DNA of 64,000 nucleotides. Source: Methyloligellaceae bacterium (lineage in GTDB: Bacteria; Pseudomonadota; Alphaproteobacteria; Rhizobiales; CBDHHC01). Of the stretch, positions 7,348 to 57,378 are shown one piece after another. The position numbers and the translations under genes were made by a program. The stretch is from assembly GCA_965263345.1 (NCBI GenBank), contig CBDHHC010000021.1:4182-68181 (forward strand). Reading direction: 5' to 3'. The notes under the pieces were generated by a model. It had not been told where the DNA came from. It ran no database searches and saw only the letters and a list, made by a program, of their open reading frames with translations. Within the stretch, counting starts at the first letter, position 1, and every line of letters begins with the position of its first letter.

Positions 7348-9066
7348 ATGAATTTTACAGATCCGAACAGTCAGAATTTTATAGAAAGCCTGAGTAATTT
7401 ATTGCTCAATAATAAAATTATTGATGAAAATGCATTAAATAGGGCAAAAACAGCACATTCTCAGACAAATGAGCGTTTCGATCTTGTGTTGACAAAGCTC
7501 GGTTTGGTTTCGGAGGAAGACCTCAATCAATTTTTAGCAAAACTACTCAAAATTCCATTTGTTGAAAAGAATGACTATCCAGACGACCTCATTATTCTTA
7601 ATGAGGTGAGTTTAGATTTTTTACGACTTCATAAAATATTATTGTTAGATCTAACACAAGATCAACTGAAAATTGCCACTCCAGACCCTTTTAATCACCA
7701 GGCCTTCGAAGCTCTTTCATATCAACTTGATAAAGATATAGAATGTTGTTTAACGAGAAATGCAGATTTTGAGGAGGCCTTTGAGACACTATTTGAACAT
7801 AATTTGTCAAGGCAAACTACAGATTATGAGGATTTAGATTTCTTAGACGTTAATAGTGAGGATGTTCAGAAACTAAAAGATCTTGCAAGTGAAGCACCGG
7901 TTATAAAATTAGTAAATGATCTGATTATCAAAGCTGTAGAGAATAATGCTTCAGATATTCATATTGAACCATTGGAAAATTATGTTCGTGTTAGGTATCG
8001 CATTGATGGTTTTCTCAATGAAGTTCAAAAAATTCCATTACATCTTAAATCGGCTGTTATTTCGCGCATTAAAATTCTAGGTAAGCTCAATATTGCAGAA
8101 AGACGTCTTCCTCTTGATGGTAGAATTAAGATGACAGTGAGGGGTATAGATGTTGATATTCGACTATCAACGACTCCAATCTATTTTGGGGAAAGTGTTG
8201 TATTAAGAATTCTGGATCAGAGTAAATTAACCCTTGATTTTCCAACTTTGGGGTTTGAGGGGAAAACATATGAAAATTATAAGACCTTAATTCAAAAGCC
8301 AAATGGCATCGTACTCGTGACAGGTCCTACAGGAAGTGGTAAAACAACGACGCTTTATGCCTCTTTAAATGAATTGAATGATGTTGCGCAGAAGGTATTT
8401 ACTGTAGAAGATCCTATCGAATATCAATTAGCTGGTATCAACCAACTTCAAGTTCATTCTGAAATTGGTTTAAATTTTGCGAAAGCCCTCAGGTCAATCT
8501 TAAGACAAGATCCTGATATTATCATGGTCGGGGAAATCAGAGACTTAGAAACTGCGCAAATTTCCATTCAGGCTTCATTAACCGGGCATTTGGTATTTTC
8601 TACACTCCATACCAATAGTGCAGCTGCAACAATAACTCGACTTATTGATATGGGTGTTGAAGACTATTTTATTGCCTCTACTGTTACTGGAATATTAGCA
8701 CAGAGGCTTGTTGGGAAATTATGTGAACATTGTGCAGAACCAATTGAGGTAACGCAACCTTTTATCGATAAGTTACACCCGACACAAGATACATTGTCAA
8801 TGGTCAAGCATTCTATAAAACTAAAAAAGGCTGTGGGATGTGCGTATTGTAACTATACAGGTTTCAAGGGACGGACAACGATTATGGAACTTCTTGTGAT
8901 TGATGATACAATACATGATGTTATCCTTTCTTCTGGTTCGCAGGCACAAATAGAAAAACAAGCGGTTCAAAATGGAATGACAACGATGTACCAAAATGGA
9001 TTAGTACGAGCTTTTCGTGGAGAAACAACGATCGAAGAAATTTTGCGTGTTGCACGATTAAAGTAA
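7348..9066 (+). CDS. gspE: Type II secretion ATPase GspE
   Basis: 572 aa with Walker A GPTGSGKTT, the VGEIRD motif, and a C-terminal tetracysteine (CEHC...CAYC). Confidence 0.9.
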   Translation: MNFTDPNSQNFIESLSNLLLNNKIIDENALNRAKTAHSQTNERFDLVLTKLGLVSEEDLNQFLAKLLKIPFVEKNDYPDDLIILNEVSLDFLRLHKILLLDLTQDQLKIATPDPFNHQAFEALSYQLDKDIECCLTRNADFEEAFETLFEHNLSRQTTDYEDLDFLDVNSEDVQKLKDLASEAPVIKLVNDLIIKAVENNASDIHIEPLENYVRVRYRIDGFLNEVQKIPLHLKSAVISRIKILGKLNIAERRLPLDGRIKMTVRGIDVDIRLSTTPIYFGESVVLRILDQSKLTLDFPTLGFEGKTYENYKTLIQKPNGIVLVTGPTGSGKTTTLYASLNELNDVAQKVFTVEDPIEYQLAGINQLQVHSEIGLNFAKALRSILRQDPDIIMVGEIRDLETAQISIQASLTGHLVFSTLHTNSAAATITRLIDMGVEDYFIASTVTGILAQRLVGKLCEHCAEPIEVTQPFIDKLHPTQDTLSMVKHSIKLKKAVGCAYCNYTGFKGRTTIMELLVIDDTIHDVILSSGSQAQIEKQAVQNGMTTMYQNGLVRAFRGETTIEEILRVARLK

Positions 9067-17693: not shown

Positions 17694-17987
17694 ATGAAAT
17701 ATATTTTTACAGAATGGCTTCATAAATTTGAGGATGAACCCAACAAACTTTATTATGAAATTAATAATGAAAGAATTCCAACTCGGGTGATTGAGATTTA
17801 TAAAAGTGGTAAAATTGGTTTTGCTTCAAATAAATTTCAATTTCAGGGCGCTTTCCTTTCTGTTGAACCCTTACCAGAATTAGAAGAGATAAATAGTGAT
17901 TCACAATTTAAAAGTGATTATATTGATCAAGAAGAATTTGAGAAACTTTGGAAAGAAGTAATAACCCAGCCAGACTGGTCGAAATAA
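17694..17987 (+). CDS. Hypothetical small acidic protein (possible orphan immunity-type protein)
   Basis: A 97-aa ORF with no signal peptide. Its 3' end runs into an A-repeat head (ACCCAGCCAGACTGG). The function was not recognised. Confidence 0.35.
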   Translation: MKYIFTEWLHKFEDEPNKLYYEINNERIPTRVIEIYKSGKIGFASNKFQFQGAFLSVEPLPELEEINSDSQFKSDYIDQEEFEKLWKEVITQPDWSK

Positions 17988-18014
17988 CCATAAGCGCTAA
18001 CCTCGCGGGTAAGA

Positions 18015-18112
18015 CTTCTTTAATGCGACATTTGTCAAGTCTAAATTAATCAACATTGGTCAGGTTGTATACCTGACCACATTATAATGACCCAAACTTA
18101 AAGCTTCTATTC
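18015..18112 (+). repeat. Repeat family C, copy 2
   Basis: Identical to 1..98. Confidence 0.9.
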
Positions 18113-18273
18113 TACGCAATATGAGAGCCGTCTATTGGCAGGCATCATGCTTCTTTCCGGGATCAGTGCTGGCGTAATTTTACGCTCCCAATAACACTCT
18201 CCCAAGTTACTGTCCATTCAAAGAGGGAGGCCGAACAAGCTTTGCAACGTGATTGGAAAGCCCTTTGACTTAA

Positions 18274-18358
18274 CCATGCCGGACCGATCTTGCAGATCGG
18301 TCTGATGGTTCTTGCCTCTTTAGGGCTATTGCATGATGGTCAGCCATTCCTGCGAAGG
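18274..18358 (+). repeat. Repeat family E copy 2
   Basis: Same hairpin and core as 16699..16799, with a shorter tail. Confidence 0.85.
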
Positions 18359-18395
18359 AAATACCTTATTATTATAGCCTATAAATTTTGATTTG

Positions 18396-19760
18396 TCATG
18401 GGTAATATCGCTGTGGCAAAGTCACGATAAAACGCGCGCCACCCATCGGGCTGTCTGAAATCTCTACCGATCCATGATGCGAGTCCACAATTTGTTTCAC
18501 GATAGCAAGACCCAAACCGCTGCCACCGGTCGCCCGGCTTCTTGAATTTTCAATACGGTAAAACGGTTCGAAAATATTTTTTCTGACATAATCGGGGATG
18601 CCCGGTCCATTATCATCAATCAGGATACAATGATGACCTTTCTTTGTCTTTACAGTGACTGTCGCCTTCTCAGCGTAATTCATGGCATTATCAATCAAAT
18701 TTGCAAACAACCGGCGGATGCTGGTTAAATCGCCTTTGGTGATATGAGGTTCATTATCTGTCTCAAAGCTGATCGTGTCTATATCTCTAGCCGCAATATC
18801 TTCCTGCAAGATCTGAACGATGTCGATGTCATCATAACGGTCCGTCAGGCCGTTCCCCCGTGCGATAGCGATCGAGTCATTGATGATACGGGACATGTCT
18901 TCCAAATCTTTAACAGCTTTTTCTTGCTTGGTTTCATCCGGAATATCCTCAACACGAAGTCTCAGACGAGTGATATAAGTTTTGAGATCATGGGAAATAG
19001 CACCTAGCAAAACCGAGCGTGCTTTGATCAAAGTCGAGATCCGTTCCTGCATGGCATTGGTTGCTGAGATTAATTCTTTAATCTCTGGGGCGCCTTTCGG
19101 TTTGATAAATCTCGGAGCAACATCTATACCAAAATTTTTCACATTGTCAGAAAGCTGCCTTAAGGGTTTGGCTTCCCGGGCAATCGCCCATAACGCAAAC
19201 CCCGCAAACAGGAAACCATAAAACCCAATCCAAAACCCGATAGGGATACCAAATATCCGCTCCCGAGTGGCTTTACGGACTTTTAAAATGGCAAAACGGC
19301 CATCTTTTAACTCGACCGCAATATTGACGGGTGTTTTGCTTTTTATATCAAACCGATCAAAAAACCTGACCAGTAAATTATGAGATTGTGAAATATCTCT
19401 TACAGCGATGACTTTACGATCCTGAAATGTTTCCAGATATTGTTTAACGAGCCATTCCAGCCCAGGCATACGGTCAAGATCGGAAAACCCTTCCGGCTGT
19501 TTTGAGACAATCTCGATTGCAAGTTCAGGTGTTTTGATCGCACGTAACGTAATGTCTAATTTTTCTGGTGATGAGCTGTCAATTAGATCAATAATAGCAG
19601 CCGATTGATCTGGAATTGGAAAGCGCGAAGCCGCGGATGATTGATCTTTTTTTGCTACAAATGAAAGACCGATCGCCAATGCGAACAACGCAAGACAAAA
19701 CAACAATATGATCAATATAATCCGGTTGAATAATCGTAGTCTTCCAAACATCTTAAACAT
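18396..19760 (-). CDS. Sensor histidine kinase (two TM helices, HAMP, HisKA, HATPase_c)
   Basis: 454 aa with H-box SHDLKTY, N-box DNAMNY, G-boxes DDNGPGI and GGSGLGLAIV. Its start overlaps the response-regulator stop. Confidence 0.85.
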   Translation of the reverse strand: MFKMFGRLRLFNRIILIILLFCLALFALAIGLSFVAKKDQSSAASRFPIPDQSAAIIDLIDSSSPEKLDITLRAIKTPELAIEIVSKQPEGFSDLDRMPGLEWLVKQYLETFQDRKVIAVRDISQSHNLLVRFFDRFDIKSKTPVNIAVELKDGRFAILKVRKATRERIFGIPIGFWIGFYGFLFAGFALWAIAREAKPLRQLSDNVKNFGIDVAPRFIKPKGAPEIKELISATNAMQERISTLIKARSVLLGAISHDLKTYITRLRLRVEDIPDETKQEKAVKDLEDMSRIINDSIAIARGNGLTDRYDDIDIVQILQEDIAARDIDTISFETDNEPHITKGDLTSIRRLFANLIDNAMNYAEKATVTVKTKKGHHCILIDDNGPGIPDYVRKNIFEPFYRIENSRSRATGGSGLGLAIVKQIVDSHHGSVEISDSPMGGARFIVTLPQRYYP

Positions 19761-20469
19761 CTCGAATGGGTTTTACGGGTGCACTTAAAAGATAGCCCGC
19801 ATTTCTTAATGTCTTGATCATTGGCTCGGATCCATCTTCGATTTTCTTGCGTAACCGGCTCACCTGCACATCAATCGTTCTGTCTAAAGCCTCAGCCTTG
19901 CGCCCTCTCGTCCAGTCCATGAGTTGATCACGGGAGAGCACTCGTCCCGGTCTTGTGACAAAACATTCGAGCAAATCAAACTCTGCACTTGTGAGGTTGA
20001 TCTCATCACCCTTTTGATCCATCACACAACGTGCATCAAGATCAACTGTCAGAGGGCCGACAGACAATTGGTCGGTGTCAATATTAAGCGATTGTTCGGT
20101 GCGTCTTAAGATTGCCCGTATACGTGCAACGAGTTCACGGGGATTAAACGGTTTTGGCAGATAGTCATCTGCCCCCATTTCCAGACCAATAATGCGATCA
20201 ATATCTTCCCCCTTTGCAGTTAGCATAATAATCGGGACGCGGGAATTTGTCCGTAAACGTCTGCATATCGAAAGCCCGTCTTCGCCTGGGAGCATCACAT
20301 CAAGCACAATTAAATCAGGCATGCCTTTATAAGAGAGCAGGTGATCAAGAGCAGCTCCACCATTAGCAATATCAGCGGAGAAATCATGCTTTACAAGATA
20401 ATCCTTCAAGAGTGTTTGAATCTCAGGGTCATCCTCAACAATAATGATATAGGGCTGCTCTCTTGTCAT
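19753..20469 (-). CDS. OmpR/PhoB-family response regulator
   Basis: 238 aa with a receiver domain (LIVLDVMLPGEDG) and a winged-helix C-terminus (VDVQVSRLRKKIE). Confidence 0.9.
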   Translation of the reverse strand: MTREQPYIIIVEDDPEIQTLLKDYLVKHDFSADIANGGAALDHLLSYKGMPDLIVLDVMLPGEDGLSICRRLRTNSRVPIIMLTAKGEDIDRIIGLEMGADDYLPKPFNPRELVARIRAILRRTEQSLNIDTDQLSVGPLTVDLDARCVMDQKGDEINLTSAEFDLLECFVTRPGRVLSRDQLMDWTRGRKAEALDRTIDVQVSRLRKKIEDGSEPMIKTLRNAGYLLSAPVKPIRDV

Positions 20470-20476
20470 GATGTGA

Positions 20477-20538
20477 TGTTACACTCAATTTTAGAGTGAT
20501 AGTAAAGAGAAATAGATATGTTGTTACAAATTGTTACA
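20477..20538 (+). promoter_or_regulatory. Candidate response-regulator binding sites: three TGTTACA motifs, two of them phased by exactly 10 bp
   Basis: TGTTACA occurs at 20477..20483, 20522..20528 and 20532..20538. They lie in the divergent region between the regulator gene and the secreted-protein genes. Confidence 0.35.
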
Positions 20539-20634
20539 TTTCCCTCGATTTTTGAAATGTTCCAGAAAACTATTTACTCCAAATTCCTAAGTACTGGATC
20601 GCAACCAGTTCTTATTAATCAAGGAGTTTGAATT

Positions 20635-20946
20635 ATGAAATCACTAAAAGTTATTATTTTGAGTCTGCCTGTTATTTGTTTCGCGTTTGCAGGTGCACAA
20701 GCAGATGGTTGGAAAAGAGATCGTGTCACGACAGGACCACATGGTGGACAGTGGAAATTTTCTGGCAATGGCAATTGTAGTGGGGGAAATTGTTCGTCTA
20801 ATCAAAAATGGACTGGACCAAATGGCGGCACTGTAACACGTCATGGATCAACACAATGTTCTAACGGAACATGTGAAGGGACAGCAACCTGGAAAGGCAC
20901 TCATGGTAAGACCTGGTCAACACAACGTCGCTTCAAACGTTATTGA
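20635..20946 (+). CDS. Small secreted Gly/Asn/Cys/Trp-rich protein
   Basis: 103 aa with signal peptide MKSLKVIILSLPVICFAFAGAQA. The mature part has repeated TGP(H/N)GG...C..G.C units and a basic C-terminus. Confidence 0.55.
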   Translation: MKSLKVIILSLPVICFAFAGAQADGWKRDRVTTGPHGGQWKFSGNGNCSGGNCSSNQKWTGPNGGTVTRHGSTQCSNGTCEGTATWKGTHGKTWSTQRRFKRY

Positions 20947-20951
20947 GAAGC

Positions 20952-21395
20952 ATGGGTGTTATGATGGTTAAAACACTTTTCTACGTAATCGCTATTTTAC
21001 ATATTATTGCACTACCCTTGAATGTTCAAGCGTCGGAACCAAATAAGAAATATGCTCCAGGCGGATTTTATTCAATGCCAATTCGTTTTGGGCTAAGGGC
21101 TTGTGGCGCTGATATCGCAAAGTTATGTGATAACATTATGCCAGGTGGTGGTCGAATAGCACAATGCCTAAAAGATCAAAAAAAAGATCTTTCTACAGCT
21201 TGTCGTAATTTTGTAGATTACGGCAGCAGCTTACGTAAAGCATTCTTCGCCTGTAATGCTGATGCGTCAAAATACTGCTCTCATATCCGACCAGGAGGAG
21301 GTCGCATCATTTCCTGCCTGAAAGGTGAGAAGGAAAAAATTTCTGAGATTTGTAATGGCGCATTATCTCAGATTGAAAGTGACTACGGACAGTAG
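20952..21395 (+). CDS. Secreted cysteine-rich repeat protein (two C-x-D-x4-C-x4-PGGGRI-x2-CL units)
   Basis: It has a signal peptide ending NVQA and two clear repeats (CGADIAKLCDNIMPGGGRIAQCL and CNADASKYCSHIRPGGGRIISCL). It is tightly linked to the previous ORF. The start is uncertain (20943/20952/20961). Confidence 0.6.
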   Translation: MGVMMVKTLFYVIAILHIIALPLNVQASEPNKKYAPGGFYSMPIRFGLRACGADIAKLCDNIMPGGGRIAQCLKDQKKDLSTACRNFVDYGSSLRKAFFACNADASKYCSHIRPGGGRIISCLKGEKEKISEICNGALSQIESDYGQ

Positions 21396-21424
21396 AAACA
21401 ATATCTAGTAGCGGACAGATTTAT

Positions 21425-21550
21425 CCCCCGCCGGTCAGGCTTTGCAAGCCTGACTGAAAAGTCATGCCGCACCCTCGGTCAAACACAACCTCTCTATGAC
21501 CTGAAATTCAAAACTTCAATCTCACTTATCGGATGAGCCGAAGACCATTT
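21425..21550 (-). repeat. Repeat family B copy 1 (here still attached to the RAYT pseudogene)
   Basis: It has the hairpin GTCAGGCT-ttgca-AGCCTGAC. The ~125-nt unit is shared with 42126..42250 and 43082..43206. Confidence 0.85.
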
Positions 21551-21813
21551 CCAATAATCGGGCCGTTCCACATATCCTTTGCGGACAGGATAGTTATAGA
21601 TGTAATCTGTTCTGGTTTATTGTCCTCTTTCCAAAAGTGATATTCATGCGGCTCATCACAAAATATCTTCAAGACATTGGGTTCGCATTCAGCCAGATTC
21701 TTTTTAACTTGTTCCAAGGTTATTTGGAAAACTAGGGAGCGACCAAAATTTGGAGGGGGCATTAGGATGTTAAATGTGGAGTGATCAATATAATCCCTAA
21801 TGCGTAAGCACAA
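21494..21813 (-). pseudogene. Truncated and frameshifted second RAYT/IS200-like transposase gene
   Basis: The segment TLEQVKKNLAECEPNVLKIFCDEPHEYHFWKEDNKP aligns with SKELKKNLQEHEPQVLELFLDEEKGYRFWKDDNKP of the intact copy. After a frameshift, YNYPVRKGYVERPDYWKWSSAHPISEIEVLNFRS* aligns with NYIHENPVHKCYVERPEYWKWSSANPNSEIRLVDYR*. The N-terminal half, including the HUH motif, is missing. Confidence 0.7.
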
Positions 21814-21862
21814 AGGCCACTATAAAATCATTCATTTTTTATAGAATTGGATGCTCGTGAGA

Positions 21863-22648
21863 TTATAATATTGCATCTGTAACGATGATATCGACCTCAG
21901 AAGCTTTGCAAATGTCCTGTATCACAACCGATGGTGATTTATTCGTAACAAAAATATCAATTTCAGACATATGCCCTATTTGCACAGGTGCGTGTCTTTC
22001 AAATTTCATTGCATCTGCAACAAGTATACGTTTGCGCGCCTGCGCTAGAATAGCTTGCGCAACTCGGACCTCACGAAAGTCAAAATCTAACAGGCTGCCT
22101 TCTGAATCGATTGCAGATACGCCCACGATAGCGTAATCAACTTTAAACTGTTTAACAAAATCTACAGTGGCAGCTCCAACAATGCCACCATCGCTTTTGC
22201 GAACCATACCTCCAGCAATAATAACTTCTATAGATGGAGTATCTGACAAGATTGCAGCCACATGAATATTGTTAGTTACGACCATTAACCCTTCGTGGTT
22301 CCTCAGGGAATATGCAACTTGCTCAGTCGTTGTACCAATATTCAAAATAAGTGAGGAATTACTTGGTATAAGAGAAGCGGTAGCAAGGCCAATATTGGCT
22401 TTCGCTGACGAGGCAATTTCTCGCCTTGAAATATATGATACATTCGAAGTTGTCGAGGGGTAAACCGCACCTCCATGCATTCTATGCAGGATCTTCATTT
22501 CACATAAATCGTTCAAATCTTTCCTAATAGTTTGAGGTGTCACCTTAAACCTTTCAGAAAGCCCATTCACATCTACCCGACCTTCAGTTCTTGCAATTTC
22601 AATTATATCTTGTTGTCGAGGAGGCAAAGCACGCATAGAGTATCCCAT
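21863..22648 (-). CDS. glpR: DeoR-family transcriptional repressor (GlpR-like)
   Basis: 261 aa with an N-terminal DeoR HTH (RQQDIIEIARTEGRVDVNGLSERFKVTPQTIRKDLNDL) and a C-terminal sugar-phosphate sensor domain. It is the last gene of the glycerol transporter operon. Confidence 0.75.
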   Translation of the reverse strand: MGYSMRALPPRQQDIIEIARTEGRVDVNGLSERFKVTPQTIRKDLNDLCEMKILHRMHGGAVYPSTTSNVSYISRREIASSAKANIGLATASLIPSNSSLILNIGTTTEQVAYSLRNHEGLMVVTNNIHVAAILSDTPSIEVIIAGGMVRKSDGGIVGAATVDFVKQFKVDYAIVGVSAIDSEGSLLDFDFREVRVAQAILAQARKRILVADAMKFERHAPVQIGHMSEIDIFVTNKSPSVVIQDICKASEVDIIVTDAIL

Positions 22649-22701
22649 AAAAATGATATCAGATAAGTCATTCCTACAGTGAAGCTTTTAGTAATTCCTT
22701 A

Positions 22702-22983
22702 CTAAACCCATAGAAAAACACATAATGTGTAGATTAAGCAGATTCCAATTGCAATCCAAAGGGGTGGGCCAAAAAGTCCTAACCATGCGAGTTGTATAAA
22801 AGCACTTCCAATCAAGGAGATGAATAATCGGTCTCCACGGGTTGTGGTTAATGTCAATATTCCTCGTCTGGGAGCTCCTCCAGGAGAACGTATCTCCCAT
22901 ATCGTCATAATAACAAGTAGTCCTGCGATAATCACAAAAAATAGACCAGTCTGCCAAGTCCATGCCATCCAACTTAGGTTCAT
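22702..22983 (-). CDS. DUF2160-type small membrane protein of glycerol ABC transporter clusters
   Basis: 93 aa. The sequence MNLSWMAWTWQTGLFF...TTTRGDRLFISLIGSAFIQLAWLGL matches the conserved DUF2160 pattern as I recall it. The alternative frame 22688..23002 was rejected. Confidence 0.65.
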   Translation of the reverse strand: MNLSWMAWTWQTGLFFVIIAGLLVIMTIWEIRSPGGAPRRGILTLTTTRGDRLFISLIGSAFIQLAWLGLFGPPLWIAIGICLIYTLCVFLWV

Positions 22984-41134: not shown

Positions 41135-41170
41135 TTGACCCATATCAACAATGCGCATATTATATGCGCA
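41135..41170 (+). promoter_or_regulatory. ccdAB promoter with overlapping inverted-repeat operator
   Basis: TTGACC (41135..41140), a 17-nt spacer, then TATTAT (41158..41163). A perfect 9-bp inverted repeat TGCGCATAT-t-ATATGCGCA (41152..41170) covers the -10. Confidence 0.4.
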
Positions 41171-41193
41171 CTAAAATCATCGGAAATATTGAT

Positions 41194-41412
41194 ATGAAAC
41201 GTTCTGCAAATCTATCTGTTGATGCCAAGCTGCTTGAAGAAGCAAAAAGCTTAGACATAAATCTCTCTCAGACTTTGGAACAGGCTCTAAGAAGTTTAAT
41301 TCGTCATAAACGTTCCGAACAATGGACCTTAGACAATAAAGCTTCGTTCGAATCCTATAGTAATCATATAGAAAGACGGGGTGCATTCAGTGACAAATTA
41401 AGGTCGTTTTAA
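41194..41412 (+). CDS. ccdA: CcdA-type antitoxin
   Basis: The sequence MKRSANLSVDAKLLEEAKSLDINLSQTLEQAL matches the CcdA pattern. The stop abuts the ccdB start. Confidence 0.7.
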   Translation: MKRSANLSVDAKLLEEAKSLDINLSQTLEQALRSLIRHKRSEQWTLDNKASFESYSNHIERRGAFSDKLRSF

Positions 41413-41723
41413 TGCGTCAGTTTGATGTCTGTTTAAACCCGAACAAGGCAAGCGCTAACGACGCGCCTTACCTTGTGGTTTTACAGTCAGATCTATTGTC
41501 TCCTTTGAACACATGTGTGGTCGCCCCTTTACTCAAAGAAAAGTCCTACAAACCAATTGATAAATTAACACCTATACTCATCATTAAATCTCATAAATAC
41601 ATATTGTCAGTGACTGAATTAGCTGGCGTTCAATATGATGTGATAGGAGATGTTGTTTGTAATGTCGAAGATAAAAGAGATGAAATAATTGCTGCGCTGG
41701 ATCTTTTATTCCTTGGTTTTTAA
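41412..41723 (+). CDS. ccdB: CcdB-type toxin (gyrase poison family)
   Basis: 103 aa. The sequence MRQFDVCLNPNKASANDAPYLVVLQSDLL matches the CcdB pattern. Confidence 0.75.
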   Translation: MRQFDVCLNPNKASANDAPYLVVLQSDLLSPLNTCVVAPLLKEKSYKPIDKLTPILIIKSHKYILSVTELAGVQYDVIGDVVCNVEDKRDEIIAALDLLFLGF

Positions 41724-41760
41724 TCAAAAGAGTGTAAATGAACATATGCCTATGGGCATA

Positions 41761-41878
41761 CAGCCGGACTGGGCATGTTGACCAGTCTGAGTGTTCTTGC
41801 CTTTGTTTGCGCATCAGTTGGTATAGGGTTTGTGCAAAAACGGTAGGGGCGCATCAGAATGATACGCCCCGCATCGGA
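41761..41878 (+). repeat. Repeat family A copy 4
   Basis: Differs from 16345..16470 at only about three positions by eye. Confidence 0.85.
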
Positions 41879-42125
41879 ATGTTTTGGTAAACCTTGTTAA
41901 AATGATTTAGTAAGCAAGTAGGTTAAAACTATATAGAGAAAAAGTTTAATGAGATATACAACTTGTATACTGTTAGTTTTCTTCTGTTGCGTGGCATTAA
42001 ACCATGTTTTGGCACACCAAAGTGAATGGTGCCAACCATCGAAAATTGTTTATCTATTTGGAGAAAATTCTGTTTTGAGAATTATTATCACTTAAAAAGG
42101 ACAACCTAATTGTTCCCTCAGGCAG

Positions 42126-42250
42126 CCCCCGCCGGTCAGGCTTTGCAAGCCTGACTGAAAAGTCTTGCCACTCCCTCGGTCAAGAACAGCCTCTCTATGA
42201 TCTAAAATTCAAAACCTCAATCTCACTTATCGGATGAGCCGAAGACCATT
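42126..42250 (-). repeat. Repeat family B copy 2 (solo)
   Basis: Same hairpin as copy 1. Its minus-strand reading encodes WSSAHPISEIEVLNFRS*, the C-terminal end of the RAYT-type ORF. Confidence 0.85.
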
Positions 42251-42299
42251 CGAAGATTCTGTGCAATCGTGTCATAGCCTATATCATCAAGCCTATCTT

Positions 42300-42839
42300 T
42301 CAATTAACGATCTCCAGCCTGTATTGTCCAAAACGTGGTTTCTCAATTCGAACAAATTTCTTTCGGATTGGATTTTGACAACCATATATCGGTGTTTTAT
42401 AGGAAAAAAATTGAGACCATGAAAAACGTTCAGTGATGCAAATAGGAAAATACTTTGTTGTTTCATGAGATTTAGGTTTCGTGATATCCTTACCTTTGTT
42501 GTCGTTAATATAAATGTAGACTTGTGTATTTGCTTTGTTGCCAATATTCGCACATCCACCTGATTCGATTGTATACCAACCCTCTCCACTTGATCCTAAA
42601 TAAGAAAGCGAAGTTACAGCCACAGATATTGAGAAATTCTTTTTATTGCAGATGAACATATCATTGCTAACTTGATTTAGCCTTTGTTGTTCTCTTCTAC
42701 GATCAGCATTGTTATAGTTTTCATGCTCTCTTAGCATATGATCTAAAAAACGTTGTCGTTTGTTAAAATCTGAATCTGCTAATGCTGGAGATATAAATAG
42801 AAAAATAGAAATTAAAGTTTGAATTAAAAAACGTATCAT
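42300..42839 (-). CDS. Secreted DUF1036-like protein
   Basis: 179 aa with a signal peptide (MIRFLIQTLISIFLFISPALA). The C-terminal part shows the pattern ICNKKNFSISVAV...GEGWYTIESGGCANI...VYIYIND...ICITERF...GC, which resembles DUF1036. Confidence 0.5.
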   Translation of the reverse strand: MIRFLIQTLISIFLFISPALADSDFNKRQRFLDHMLREHENYNNADRRREQQRLNQVSNDMFICNKKNFSISVAVTSLSYLGSSGEGWYTIESGGCANIGNKANTQVYIYINDNKGKDITKPKSHETTKYFPICITERFSWSQFFSYKTPIYGCQNPIRKKFVRIEKPRFGQYRLEIVN

Positions 42840-43081
42840 GGCGAAAAACTCCAGGAAATTACTTCAAAAATTAGATGTAAATAATAAAATAAGTTACAGA
42901 TAAAATATCATAATTTCCATCAAAAGAAAACTAGTGAAATGGTATTCAGATGATCAAGAAAATGGTGTTACAAATCAATTAACTTCCAATAAATAAACCT
43001 CAAGAAACAATCTTAAGTATACGATCCCCCCCCCCCAGTCTATCTGCAATAATACAACACAATAATTAGTTCAGTTAGAAA

Positions 43082-43206
43082 CCCCGCCGGTCAGGCTTTG
43101 CAAGCCTGACTGAAAAGTCTTGCCACTCCCTCGGTCAAGAACAACCTCTCTATGATCTAAAATTCAAAACCTTAATCTCACTTATCGGATGAGCCGAAGA
43201 CCATTT
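43082..43206 (-). repeat. Repeat family B copy 3 (solo)
   Basis: Differs from copy 2 at 2-3 positions and has the same left and right boundaries. Confidence 0.85.
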
Positions 43207-43320
43207 TGTTGACGTGTTACCGTGTTGATATCATAGTATGAATTCAAAGGTCAGGGAAACATTCCCTGACCTGCGGAGGGCATTTTAGTCAATAAGGAAT
43301 TTTGAAAAGGGGGGACTGTT

Positions 43321-51213: not shown

Positions 51214-51390
51214 TCTGTCCTGGGACCTGAGAGATTTCATCATTGATAAAGATTAACCAACGACTTATCACCTTCGGTGAGCTGCTCTAAGCGGCTACTT
51301 TCCAGAGGGCCATCAGCTTGCGATCCTTTTGCCTGAGAGTTTCCGAGGCGTTTGCTCCTTCGGCGCCGACTTGAAATCAGTCTCTCCCGC
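51214..51390 (-). promoter_or_regulatory. Tandem glycine riboswitch (two aptamers)
   Basis: The minus strand reads GGGAGAGACTG...GGCGCCGAAGGAGCAAACGCC...CTCTCAGGCAAAAGGATCGC for aptamer 1. It then reads CTCTGGAAAGTAGCC...GCTCACCGAAGGTGATAAG...CTCTCAGGTCCCAGGACAGA for aptamer 2. It lies upstream of gcvT. Confidence 0.85.
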
Positions 51391-51544
51391 AAGATTCGTT
51401 TGGCATGTTAAAGTTTAATGGTAGTCTGAAAATATTTTTAAAGTCAATATATTTTATATTTCACAATATAAGCTTCTTTAATCATATCACTGACCATACG
51501 GACTTAAGCTCAGACTCTTCATCCAAGAAAGAGGGAACATGCGG

Positions 51545-57303: not shown

Positions 57304-57378
57304 TGGCACCCCCTAGGAGAATCGAACTCCTGTTTCAAGAATGAAAATCTTGCGTCCTAACCACTAGACGAAGGGGGC
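57304..57378 (-). tRNA. tRNA-Glu (anticodon UUC), CCA encoded
   Basis: The reverse complement is GCCCCCTTCGTCTAGTGGTTAGGACGCAAGATTTTCATTCTTGAAACAGGAGTTCGATTCTCCTAGGGGGTGCCA. It folds as a cloverleaf: anticodon stem CAAGA/TCTTG, loop TTTTCAT, and T-arm AGGAG-TTCGATT-CTCCT. Confidence 0.9.

Follow-up and report, generated by a model that had tools for sequence, protein, structure and literature searches.

A 124-nt repeat combining the end of a RAYT gene with its REP hairpin: possible remains of a second REP-RAYT lineage

The locus at 21.5 kb raises the question of how the coding end of a transposase gene, together with the hairpin that follows it, comes to recur as a short repeat. In the window, which is the whole 64-kb stretch of DNA analyzed here, this B repeat of 124-125 nt occurs three times, at 21426-21549 (B1), 42127-42250 (B2) and 43082-43205 (B3). 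B1 is part of a dead RAYT gene, and B2 and B3 are solo units. RAYTs are relatives of the HUH/Y1 single-strand DNA transposases, and their genes lie between inverted REP hairpins. A preliminary description of the locus had regarded the repeat as a MITE/REPIN-like element being born from a transposase gene end. The DNA covered was the 64 kb together with 16 kb (L004) from a sister-strain contig of 28.7 kb (ENA ERZ26696514).

Make-up of the B repeat and its REP class

The C-terminal coding end and the perfect hairpin downstream of it recur as solo units of about 125 nt, as had been claimed, and three copies were confirmed. Identity is 98% between B2 and B3 and 93% between B1 and either of them. 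The perfect hairpin GTCAGGCT-ttgca-AGCCTGAC is present in all three copies, and its 21-mer (GTCAGGCTTTGCAAGCCTGAC; arm GTCAGGCTT) was found in 0 of 100 shuffles of the window. Each copy opens with CCCC(C)GCCG, followed directly by this hairpin. When the unit is read in the orientation of the gene, it starts with 2 nt, which are the final 2 nt of a Lys codon, and continues with 54 nt encoding W-S-S-A-H-P-I-S-E-I-E/K-V-L-N-F-R-S-stop, that is, the 17 last codons and the stop codon. These are followed by a 26-nt spacer, the REP tail GCAAGAC, the 21-nt hairpin and the REP head CGGCGGGG, which forms the outer end of the unit. In the fold prediction, the only stems obtained beyond the REP hairpin were one of 4 bp and a weak one of 7 bp, and the gene-derived half of the unit was without significant predicted structure.

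The stretches encoding WSSAH (21494-21547, 42195-42248 and 43150-43203) carry His in all three copies at the Asn of WSSAN, a position that is Asn in 20 of 20 aligned family members. Because the His is common to the three copies, the change from WSSAN to WSSAH is, judged from these sequences, older than the split between B1 and B2/B3. The direction of derivation from gene to repeat is supported by the motif W-x-W-S-S-A-N, which does not vary among homologues of many genomes with different REPs.

The hairpin belongs to a REP class with a 51-nt plan, which consists of the head CCnGCCG, a 9-bp stem, a 3-nt loop and the tail TGA-n4-TCTTGCC (TGA-n4-TTCTTGCC). The REP alignment comprised 13 copies taken from the window and from locus L002, which lies around the homologue P0003. 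In this alignment, the stem positions were paired in 97.4% of the cells compared to 67% in shuffles and at most 40% in slid controls, and seven of the nine stem pairs were changed on both sides. The covariance model R1, built from the 13 sequences, gave 12 strong matches in the window, which include B1-B3 and both flanks of an intact RAYT; 11 of the 12 are on the plus strand, a strong bias in orientation. On this model, the B hairpin is a canonical REP of this RAYT clade. The hairpin is not peculiar to this gene end, as the same class has at least 12 strong copies in the window and flanks the intact RAYT too. The B unit itself holds one REP (one R1 match) and one stable hairpin; its reading as a two-hairpin REPIN was rejected, as only one REP hairpin is predicted. 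Most plus-strand REPs of the window have a minus-strand partner about 25 nt away and constitute the A family, in which REPIN-like inverted doublets span 108-127 nt, for example at 16341-16467, 16695-16802 and 41755-41880. Inverted REPs likewise flank RAYT homologues in another genome (L002 and L005).

The intact A-type RAYT is encoded on the plus strand at 17117-17617; the protein beginning with MPKAR has 166 aa, and translation from the ATG further upstream, at 17099, would give 172 aa. The start at 17117 is the most likely one on alignment, since 19 of 19 aligned homologues begin with MP, ML or MV. The NCBIfam model NF047646, 'REP-associated tyrosine transposase', matches 17099-17617 with 86.4 bits (cut-off 80), and Pfam Y1_Tnp alone gives 21.3, which is under its cut-off of 23. 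The HUH motif is HLH and the Tyr motif is NYIHENPV. Among 20 aligned homologues, H61, Y132, P137 and V138 are invariant, and H63 and N136 are conserved in at least 90%. The protein has 570 homologues, many of which are named RayT. The top PDB match of the family profile is 4ER8, E. coli TnpArep, with the Tyr region aligned; the single sequence gave no direct match against the PDB. The 5'-flanking REP lies at 16891-16941 on the plus strand (R1 64.8 bits) and is the first half of a REPIN-like doublet at 16891-17017. The 3'-flanking REP, at 17619-17669 on the minus strand (R1 64.3 bits), is inverted, starts 2 nt past the stop codon and is also present in L004. Just upstream of the REP/RAYT cluster, an ORF for an RHS-core toxin extends over 13819-15738 on the plus strand.

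The dead RAYT gene and its counterparts in related genomes

A family HMM derived from 116 homologues of the intact RAYT (17099-17617) was searched against the translated B1 region. On the minus strand, family positions 81-127 were matched in one frame (E 1e-12) and positions 128-164 in another (E 2e-14), and tblastn together with the HMM places the RAYT pseudogene at 21494-21726, where it covers positions of about 81-164 and the stop codon in two frames. Family positions 1-80, which include the HUH motif, gave no match at B1 either in tblastn with the intact RAYT or with the HMM; the earlier statement that B1 is a C-terminal half deprived of its N-terminal HUH half is thus reproduced. The Tyr motif is kept as DYIYNYPV. 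Lacking the HUH half and with its frame disrupted, B1 is by its sequence a pseudogene and not a functional member of the family. Detectable RAYT homology stops at about 21726, or at 21753 at most, so that the pseudogene does not reach 21813 as had been described, and the ORF at 21526-21813 is an artefact of frame hopping.

The 9 nt GATTACATC (21599-21607) belong to both frames and are read as the end of ...Q-I-T-S in one frame and as D-Y-I in the other, and the family alignment is without indels across this region. The deletion and the frameshift noted previously are both present, and because of the overlap and the gap-free alignment they appear to be best explained as one event, a single deletion of about 34 nt at the 9-nt microhomology, rather than as two. 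The REP of B1, at 21422-21472 on the plus strand, consists of the head CCCCCGCCG, the hairpin GTCAGGCTTTGCAAGCCTGAC and a decayed tail TGAAAAGTCATGCC (R1 57.6 bits, E 2e-12), and is the 3'-flanking REP of the pseudogene. A possible remnant of a 5' REP to the right of B1 (21740-21775), seen by eye, was rejected with a shuffle p of 0.45-0.98 and no R1 match.

The nearest relative of the B1 pseudogene is P0005, an intact homologue of 167 aa with 81% identity over the aligned residues, whose C-terminus ...SEIEVLNFRS is as in the B family. P0005 may come from the same genome as the window, since neither its contig nor the proteins of the window have gene look-up records, of the kind that exists for P0049 (NCBI/ENA).

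The sister stretch L004 is 98-99% identical to the window over 16894-17666 and 18277-22948, corresponding to L004 9795-10568 and 11279-15971, and carries the B1 pseudogene in the same structure with one substitution inside 21425-21813. All three breaks of synteny, at window positions 16894, 17666 and 18277, lie within 7 nt of outer edges of REPs; REP heads therefore mark the borders of strain-specific segments. The segment at 17667-18276 contains a DUF6881 ORF and a copy of the repeat D7, and the sister strain has an unrelated segment of about 710 nt instead. The A-type RAYT of the sister strain shows GAA changed to TAA at L004 10268-10270 (window 17366-17368) and gene calling yields two ORFs for it (90 and 77 aa); the change may be a sequencing error, the assembly being of low coverage (about 7x).

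In a related genome (GCA_041156685.1), locus L005 contains two RAYT genes, at 8005-8665 and 9893-10553, which are 96% identical and 1.9 kb apart. Inverted REPs of 41 nt, with 95-98% complementarity, lie on both sides of each gene, which indicates that this RAYT clade can duplicate together with its REPs in the manner of an insertion sequence. The same assembly also holds a third, diverged RAYT paralogue (L002). Outside the repeats, the best named relatives of the GlpK protein are 66-70% identical (Sneathiella, Curvivirga, Magnetospira and Rhodospirillales MAGs). Rfam matches at the gathering score, both on the minus strand, mark a tandem glycine riboswitch (51214-51399), which precedes the gcv region, and a tRNA gene (57307-57378).

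The solo copies, their source and related REPs

B2, on the plus strand, comprises a REP at 42123-42173 (R1 62.7 bits), the 26-nt spacer and the stump at 42195-42248, which is on the minus strand. It sits 50 nt downstream of a DUF1036 gene, and the R1 covariance scan of the window detected no partner REP for it. B3, also on the plus strand, comprises a REP at 43078-43128 (R1 63.8 bits) and the stump at 43150-43203. The two units are separated by 955 nt and bracket the DUF1036 gene. The segment between them (42251-43081, 831 nt, minus strand) encodes a 179-aa signal-peptide protein at 42300-42839, assigned to DUF1036 by PF06282 with 27.1 bits (cut-off 23), and has a GC content of 28-34% compared to about 40% nearby. 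In the surrounding 41-44 kb, small accessory genes alternate with REP doublets, and B2 is closely preceded by a ccdA/ccdB-like toxin-antitoxin pair (41164-41723, plus strand). The alternation of small ORFs and ccdAB with repeats of about 125 nt recalls integron cassettes; an attC site was rejected, as no RYYYAAC/GTTRRRY cores are visible at the B or A ends, and no integrase was found among the part of the ORF set scanned against family libraries. Cluster look-ups around B2 and B3 yielded no sister-strain proteins.

On the gene side, B2 and B3 start at the same nucleotide (...GAAGACCATT|; junction ...CAACAA|AATGGTCTTCGG), and both encode WSSAHPISEI(E/K)VLNFRS*. No similarity was detected beyond either end of the solo units in local-alignment shuffles (p 0.2-0.9), and a likeness past the inner boundary that was seen by eye was discarded on shuffles with p 0.45-0.98. 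A simple tandem duplication of B with the intervening segment X, as B+X or X+B, was rejected, as X is present neither after B3 nor before B2. The identical inner end, the unrelated flanks and the lack of a simple tandem arrangement agree with the previous claim that B2 and B3 are copies of one truncated unit and not independent deletions. The sequence at their ends shows neither a common target motif nor a target duplication; the latter would not be expected of Y1 transposition, which leaves none.

B2 and B3 differ at 2 of 124 positions, with one private change in each, and that of B3 is non-synonymous (E to K). Both differ from B1 at seven shared positions, of which three are coding, all of them synonymous third-position transitions; for three sites only, the probability of this under neutrality is about 0.01-0.02. 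In the spacer and the REP tail, four shared differences from B1 and the private change of B2 are located (5-6 sites), and the hairpin and head show no difference among the three copies. Because all three coding differences are synonymous, B2 and B3 probably came from a second B-type gene, which diverged from B1 while it was protein-coding. The visible pseudogene, from which the solo copies were previously thought to stem, would then not be their source; the divergence of the spacer and tail also counts against it.

An inverted partner REP of B3 was found at 43231-43282 on the minus strand (CCCTCCGCAG-GTCAGGGAATGTTTCCCTGAC). It forms a perfect 11-bp hairpin, of which the outer six pairs are in common with the B hairpin, and R1, whose training set did not include it, assigns it 21.8 bits (E 0.002). 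The distance from B3 to this REP is 103 nt, and the fold of 43078-43285 has a z of -4.2. Since B3 faces an inverted REP, the 204 nt of 43078-43282 have the appearance of a REP-RAYT-REP locus that has shrunk through an internal deletion, and an origin of B3 in situ is plausible. The spacer between B3 and its partner has no significant similarity to the upstream regions of RAYTs (shuffle p 0.09).

The related inverted hairpin that had been pointed out at 98-131 can be recognized as a truncated B-type REP on the minus strand, which retains a complete head and one complete arm but only part of the second arm: positions 113-130 match the B head and 5' arm at 18 of 18 positions as the reverse complement. 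An R1 scan at E<=1 did not report 98-131. Positions 1-103 and 18015-18117 form a 103-nt direct repeat with 98% identity and a hairpin of its own, TGGTCAGGTTGTATACCTGACCA; the copy at 1-103 ends exactly at the start of the truncated REP, and the copy at 18015-18117 is without that REP.

Origin of the B family and comparison with known systems

On balance, we lean towards regarding the B family as the remnant of a second, B-type REP-RAYT lineage, produced by decay and one local copying. At B1, a B-type gene would have lost its first 80 or so codons, including the HUH motif, would have suffered the frameshifting deletion of about 34 nt, and would have kept its 3' REP. The source of B2 and B3 would be another copy of the B-type gene, which diverged from B1 while its C-terminus was under selection and was then cut once to a 124-nt stump consisting of the REP, the 26-nt spacer and the 17 last codons with the stop codon. 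This stump would have been copied once over less than 1 kb, so that its copies now bracket the DUF1036 gene. At the B3 locus, the gene between its two flanking REPs would have been deleted, leaving the inverted partner REP 103 nt away. The B lineage may have been impaired already before the split, given the WSSAH at an otherwise invariant Asn.

For the copying step, we infer as the most likely cause an event anchored at the REP head, either cleavage and joining of strands or illegitimate recombination; REP heads are where the homology between the window and the sister strain ends. A weakness of the preferred reading is that it needs the copy to end exactly at the truncation junction, which would be a coincidence under ordinary recombination; a discrete mobile unit or a site-specific cut fits such an end directly. 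There is no evidence that the stump is a proliferating element, with two neighboring solo copies in the 64-kb window.

A decayed RAYT paralogue beside its REP is expected biology in a repeat/transposase system that is already known, because frameshift, loss and duplication of RAYTs are documented: RAYT loss and frameshifted RAYTs with decaying REPINs have been described (bioRxiv 10.1101/2021.07.10.451892), and some multi-copy RAYT groups evolve mainly via loss and duplication (PMC5581495).

The birth of a MITE or REPIN, as proposed in the preliminary description, is sustained in part, namely in the direction from gene to repeat, the copying of one truncated unit and the inverted partner of B3; the single hairpin, the restriction to two neighboring copies and the missing target motif do not agree with it. 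In such a nascent non-autonomous element, a RAYT acting in trans, which could be the A-type enzyme or an intact B-like one, would cut single-stranded DNA both at the REP head and at a chance site within the gene, and would paste the product elsewhere. B2 and B3 sharing both ends to the nucleotide within unrelated flanks, without being a tandem duplication, is consistent with this, as is the position of the outer end at the REP head, where RAYT-type enzymes act. A suitable enzyme could be the intact B-like P0005 (81% identical to the pseudogene), which may share the genome, and RAYT and REP units have been duplicated with 41-nt inverted ends in the related genome. However, there are only two solo copies, at a distance of 955 nt, the gene-derived half of the single-hairpin unit is unstructured, and neither junction has a common target motif. 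Moreover, the surroundings of four homologous RAYT genes (about 60 kb in L002, L005 and L006) yielded no gene-end fragments, and scans for the exact 21-nt hairpin, which would miss diverged B-type REPs, gave one match in 185,579 GTDB species genomes and one in the JGI metagenomes, two collections in which the source assembly was not found. Both matches were dismissed as chance, as they are without REP head and tail and the genome match lies in a G+C-rich coding-like region. A nascent element of this kind is thus considered rather unlikely. A more specific version, in which 43078-43282 would be a natural intermediate of REPIN genesis, with the RAYT deleted between its own REPs, 54 coding nt left, and the stump with its REP already being copied as a discrete unit through RAYT cleavage at one end, is regarded as unlikely; if true, the 204 nt would be direct sequence evidence for the derivation of REPINs from the ends of an IS200-like ancestor.

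The identical inner boundary of B2 and B3 could also have arisen by two independent decay events at one hotspot with the same endpoint, for example a RAYT pseudo-cleavage site, and the sequence just inside the boundary, GGTCTTCGGC, loosely resembles by eye the REP tail GTCTTGCC. This is very improbable, since the two units differ at 2 of 124 positions and share all seven differences from B1, which indicates that they are recent copies of each other. Just as little can be said for a domesticated module, in which the RAYT 3' end and the REP hairpin would serve as a 3'-UTR stabilizer or a small RNA. In its favor, B2 occupies the 3' region of the DUF1036 gene, on the strand of that gene, and the three copies agree in hairpin and head but have diverged in the spacer and the REP tail. 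Against it, B3 does not lie 3' of any gene, no Rfam family was matched, promoter-like and terminator-like sites were not above shuffles, and the hairpin is not followed by a T-run. Misassembly of repeats can occur in metagenome-derived contigs, and an assembly artefact might in principle have duplicated the unit; the two differences between B2 and B3, their unique flanks, the real gene between them and the reproduction of the B1 locus in an independent assembly make this exceedingly improbable. The preferred reading of decay of a second lineage with one local copying is accordingly retained at the strength given above.

The evidence on how IS200-like transposons gave rise to REPs and REPINs is so far indirect; one proposal is that REPINs stem from the REPs on either side of an IS200-like ancestor (Bertels and Rainey 2011, PMC3116915). 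A RAYT stump between two REPs that was copied once with exact ends is a small concrete example of this proposed route, and no repeat unit carrying a RAYT coding stump was found in the REP-RAYT literature examined. With two adjacent copies, it is an illustrative case and not a discovery. The REP heads at the borders of gene cassettes in near-identical strains also bear on genome plasticity.

Compared to MITEs derived from IS200/IS605 elements, the B family is similar in that the transposase gene is partly lost and the terminal hairpin is kept, and the B3 locus keeps both terminal hairpins. It differs in that B2 keeps one end only and the two solo copies, 955 nt apart, give no evidence of dispersal. 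REPINs are matched by the A-family inverted REP doublets of the window and, with a longer spacer, by the layout of B3 and its partner REP. In contrast, the 124-nt B unit has one REP instead of an inverted pair, and the B3 doublet of 204 nt is single-copy in the window, with the homology between B2 and B3 stopping at 124 nt. Several features are in common with the REP-RAYT systems of E. coli (TnpArep/YafM, PDB 4ER8) and of Pseudomonas: a single-domain HUH/Y1 protein that passes the curated RAYT model, a RAYT gene between inverted palindromic REPs, extragenic REP repeats mostly in inverted doublets, and RAYT pseudogenization and loss. The REP of E. coli is of the GTAG type, whereas that of the window has the head CCnGCCG, a variable 9-bp stem and TGA-n4-TTCTTGCC. 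The host of the window is, unlike those of the known systems, an uncultured alphaproteobacterium, in which several diverged RAYT paralogues, dead and alive, are found together.
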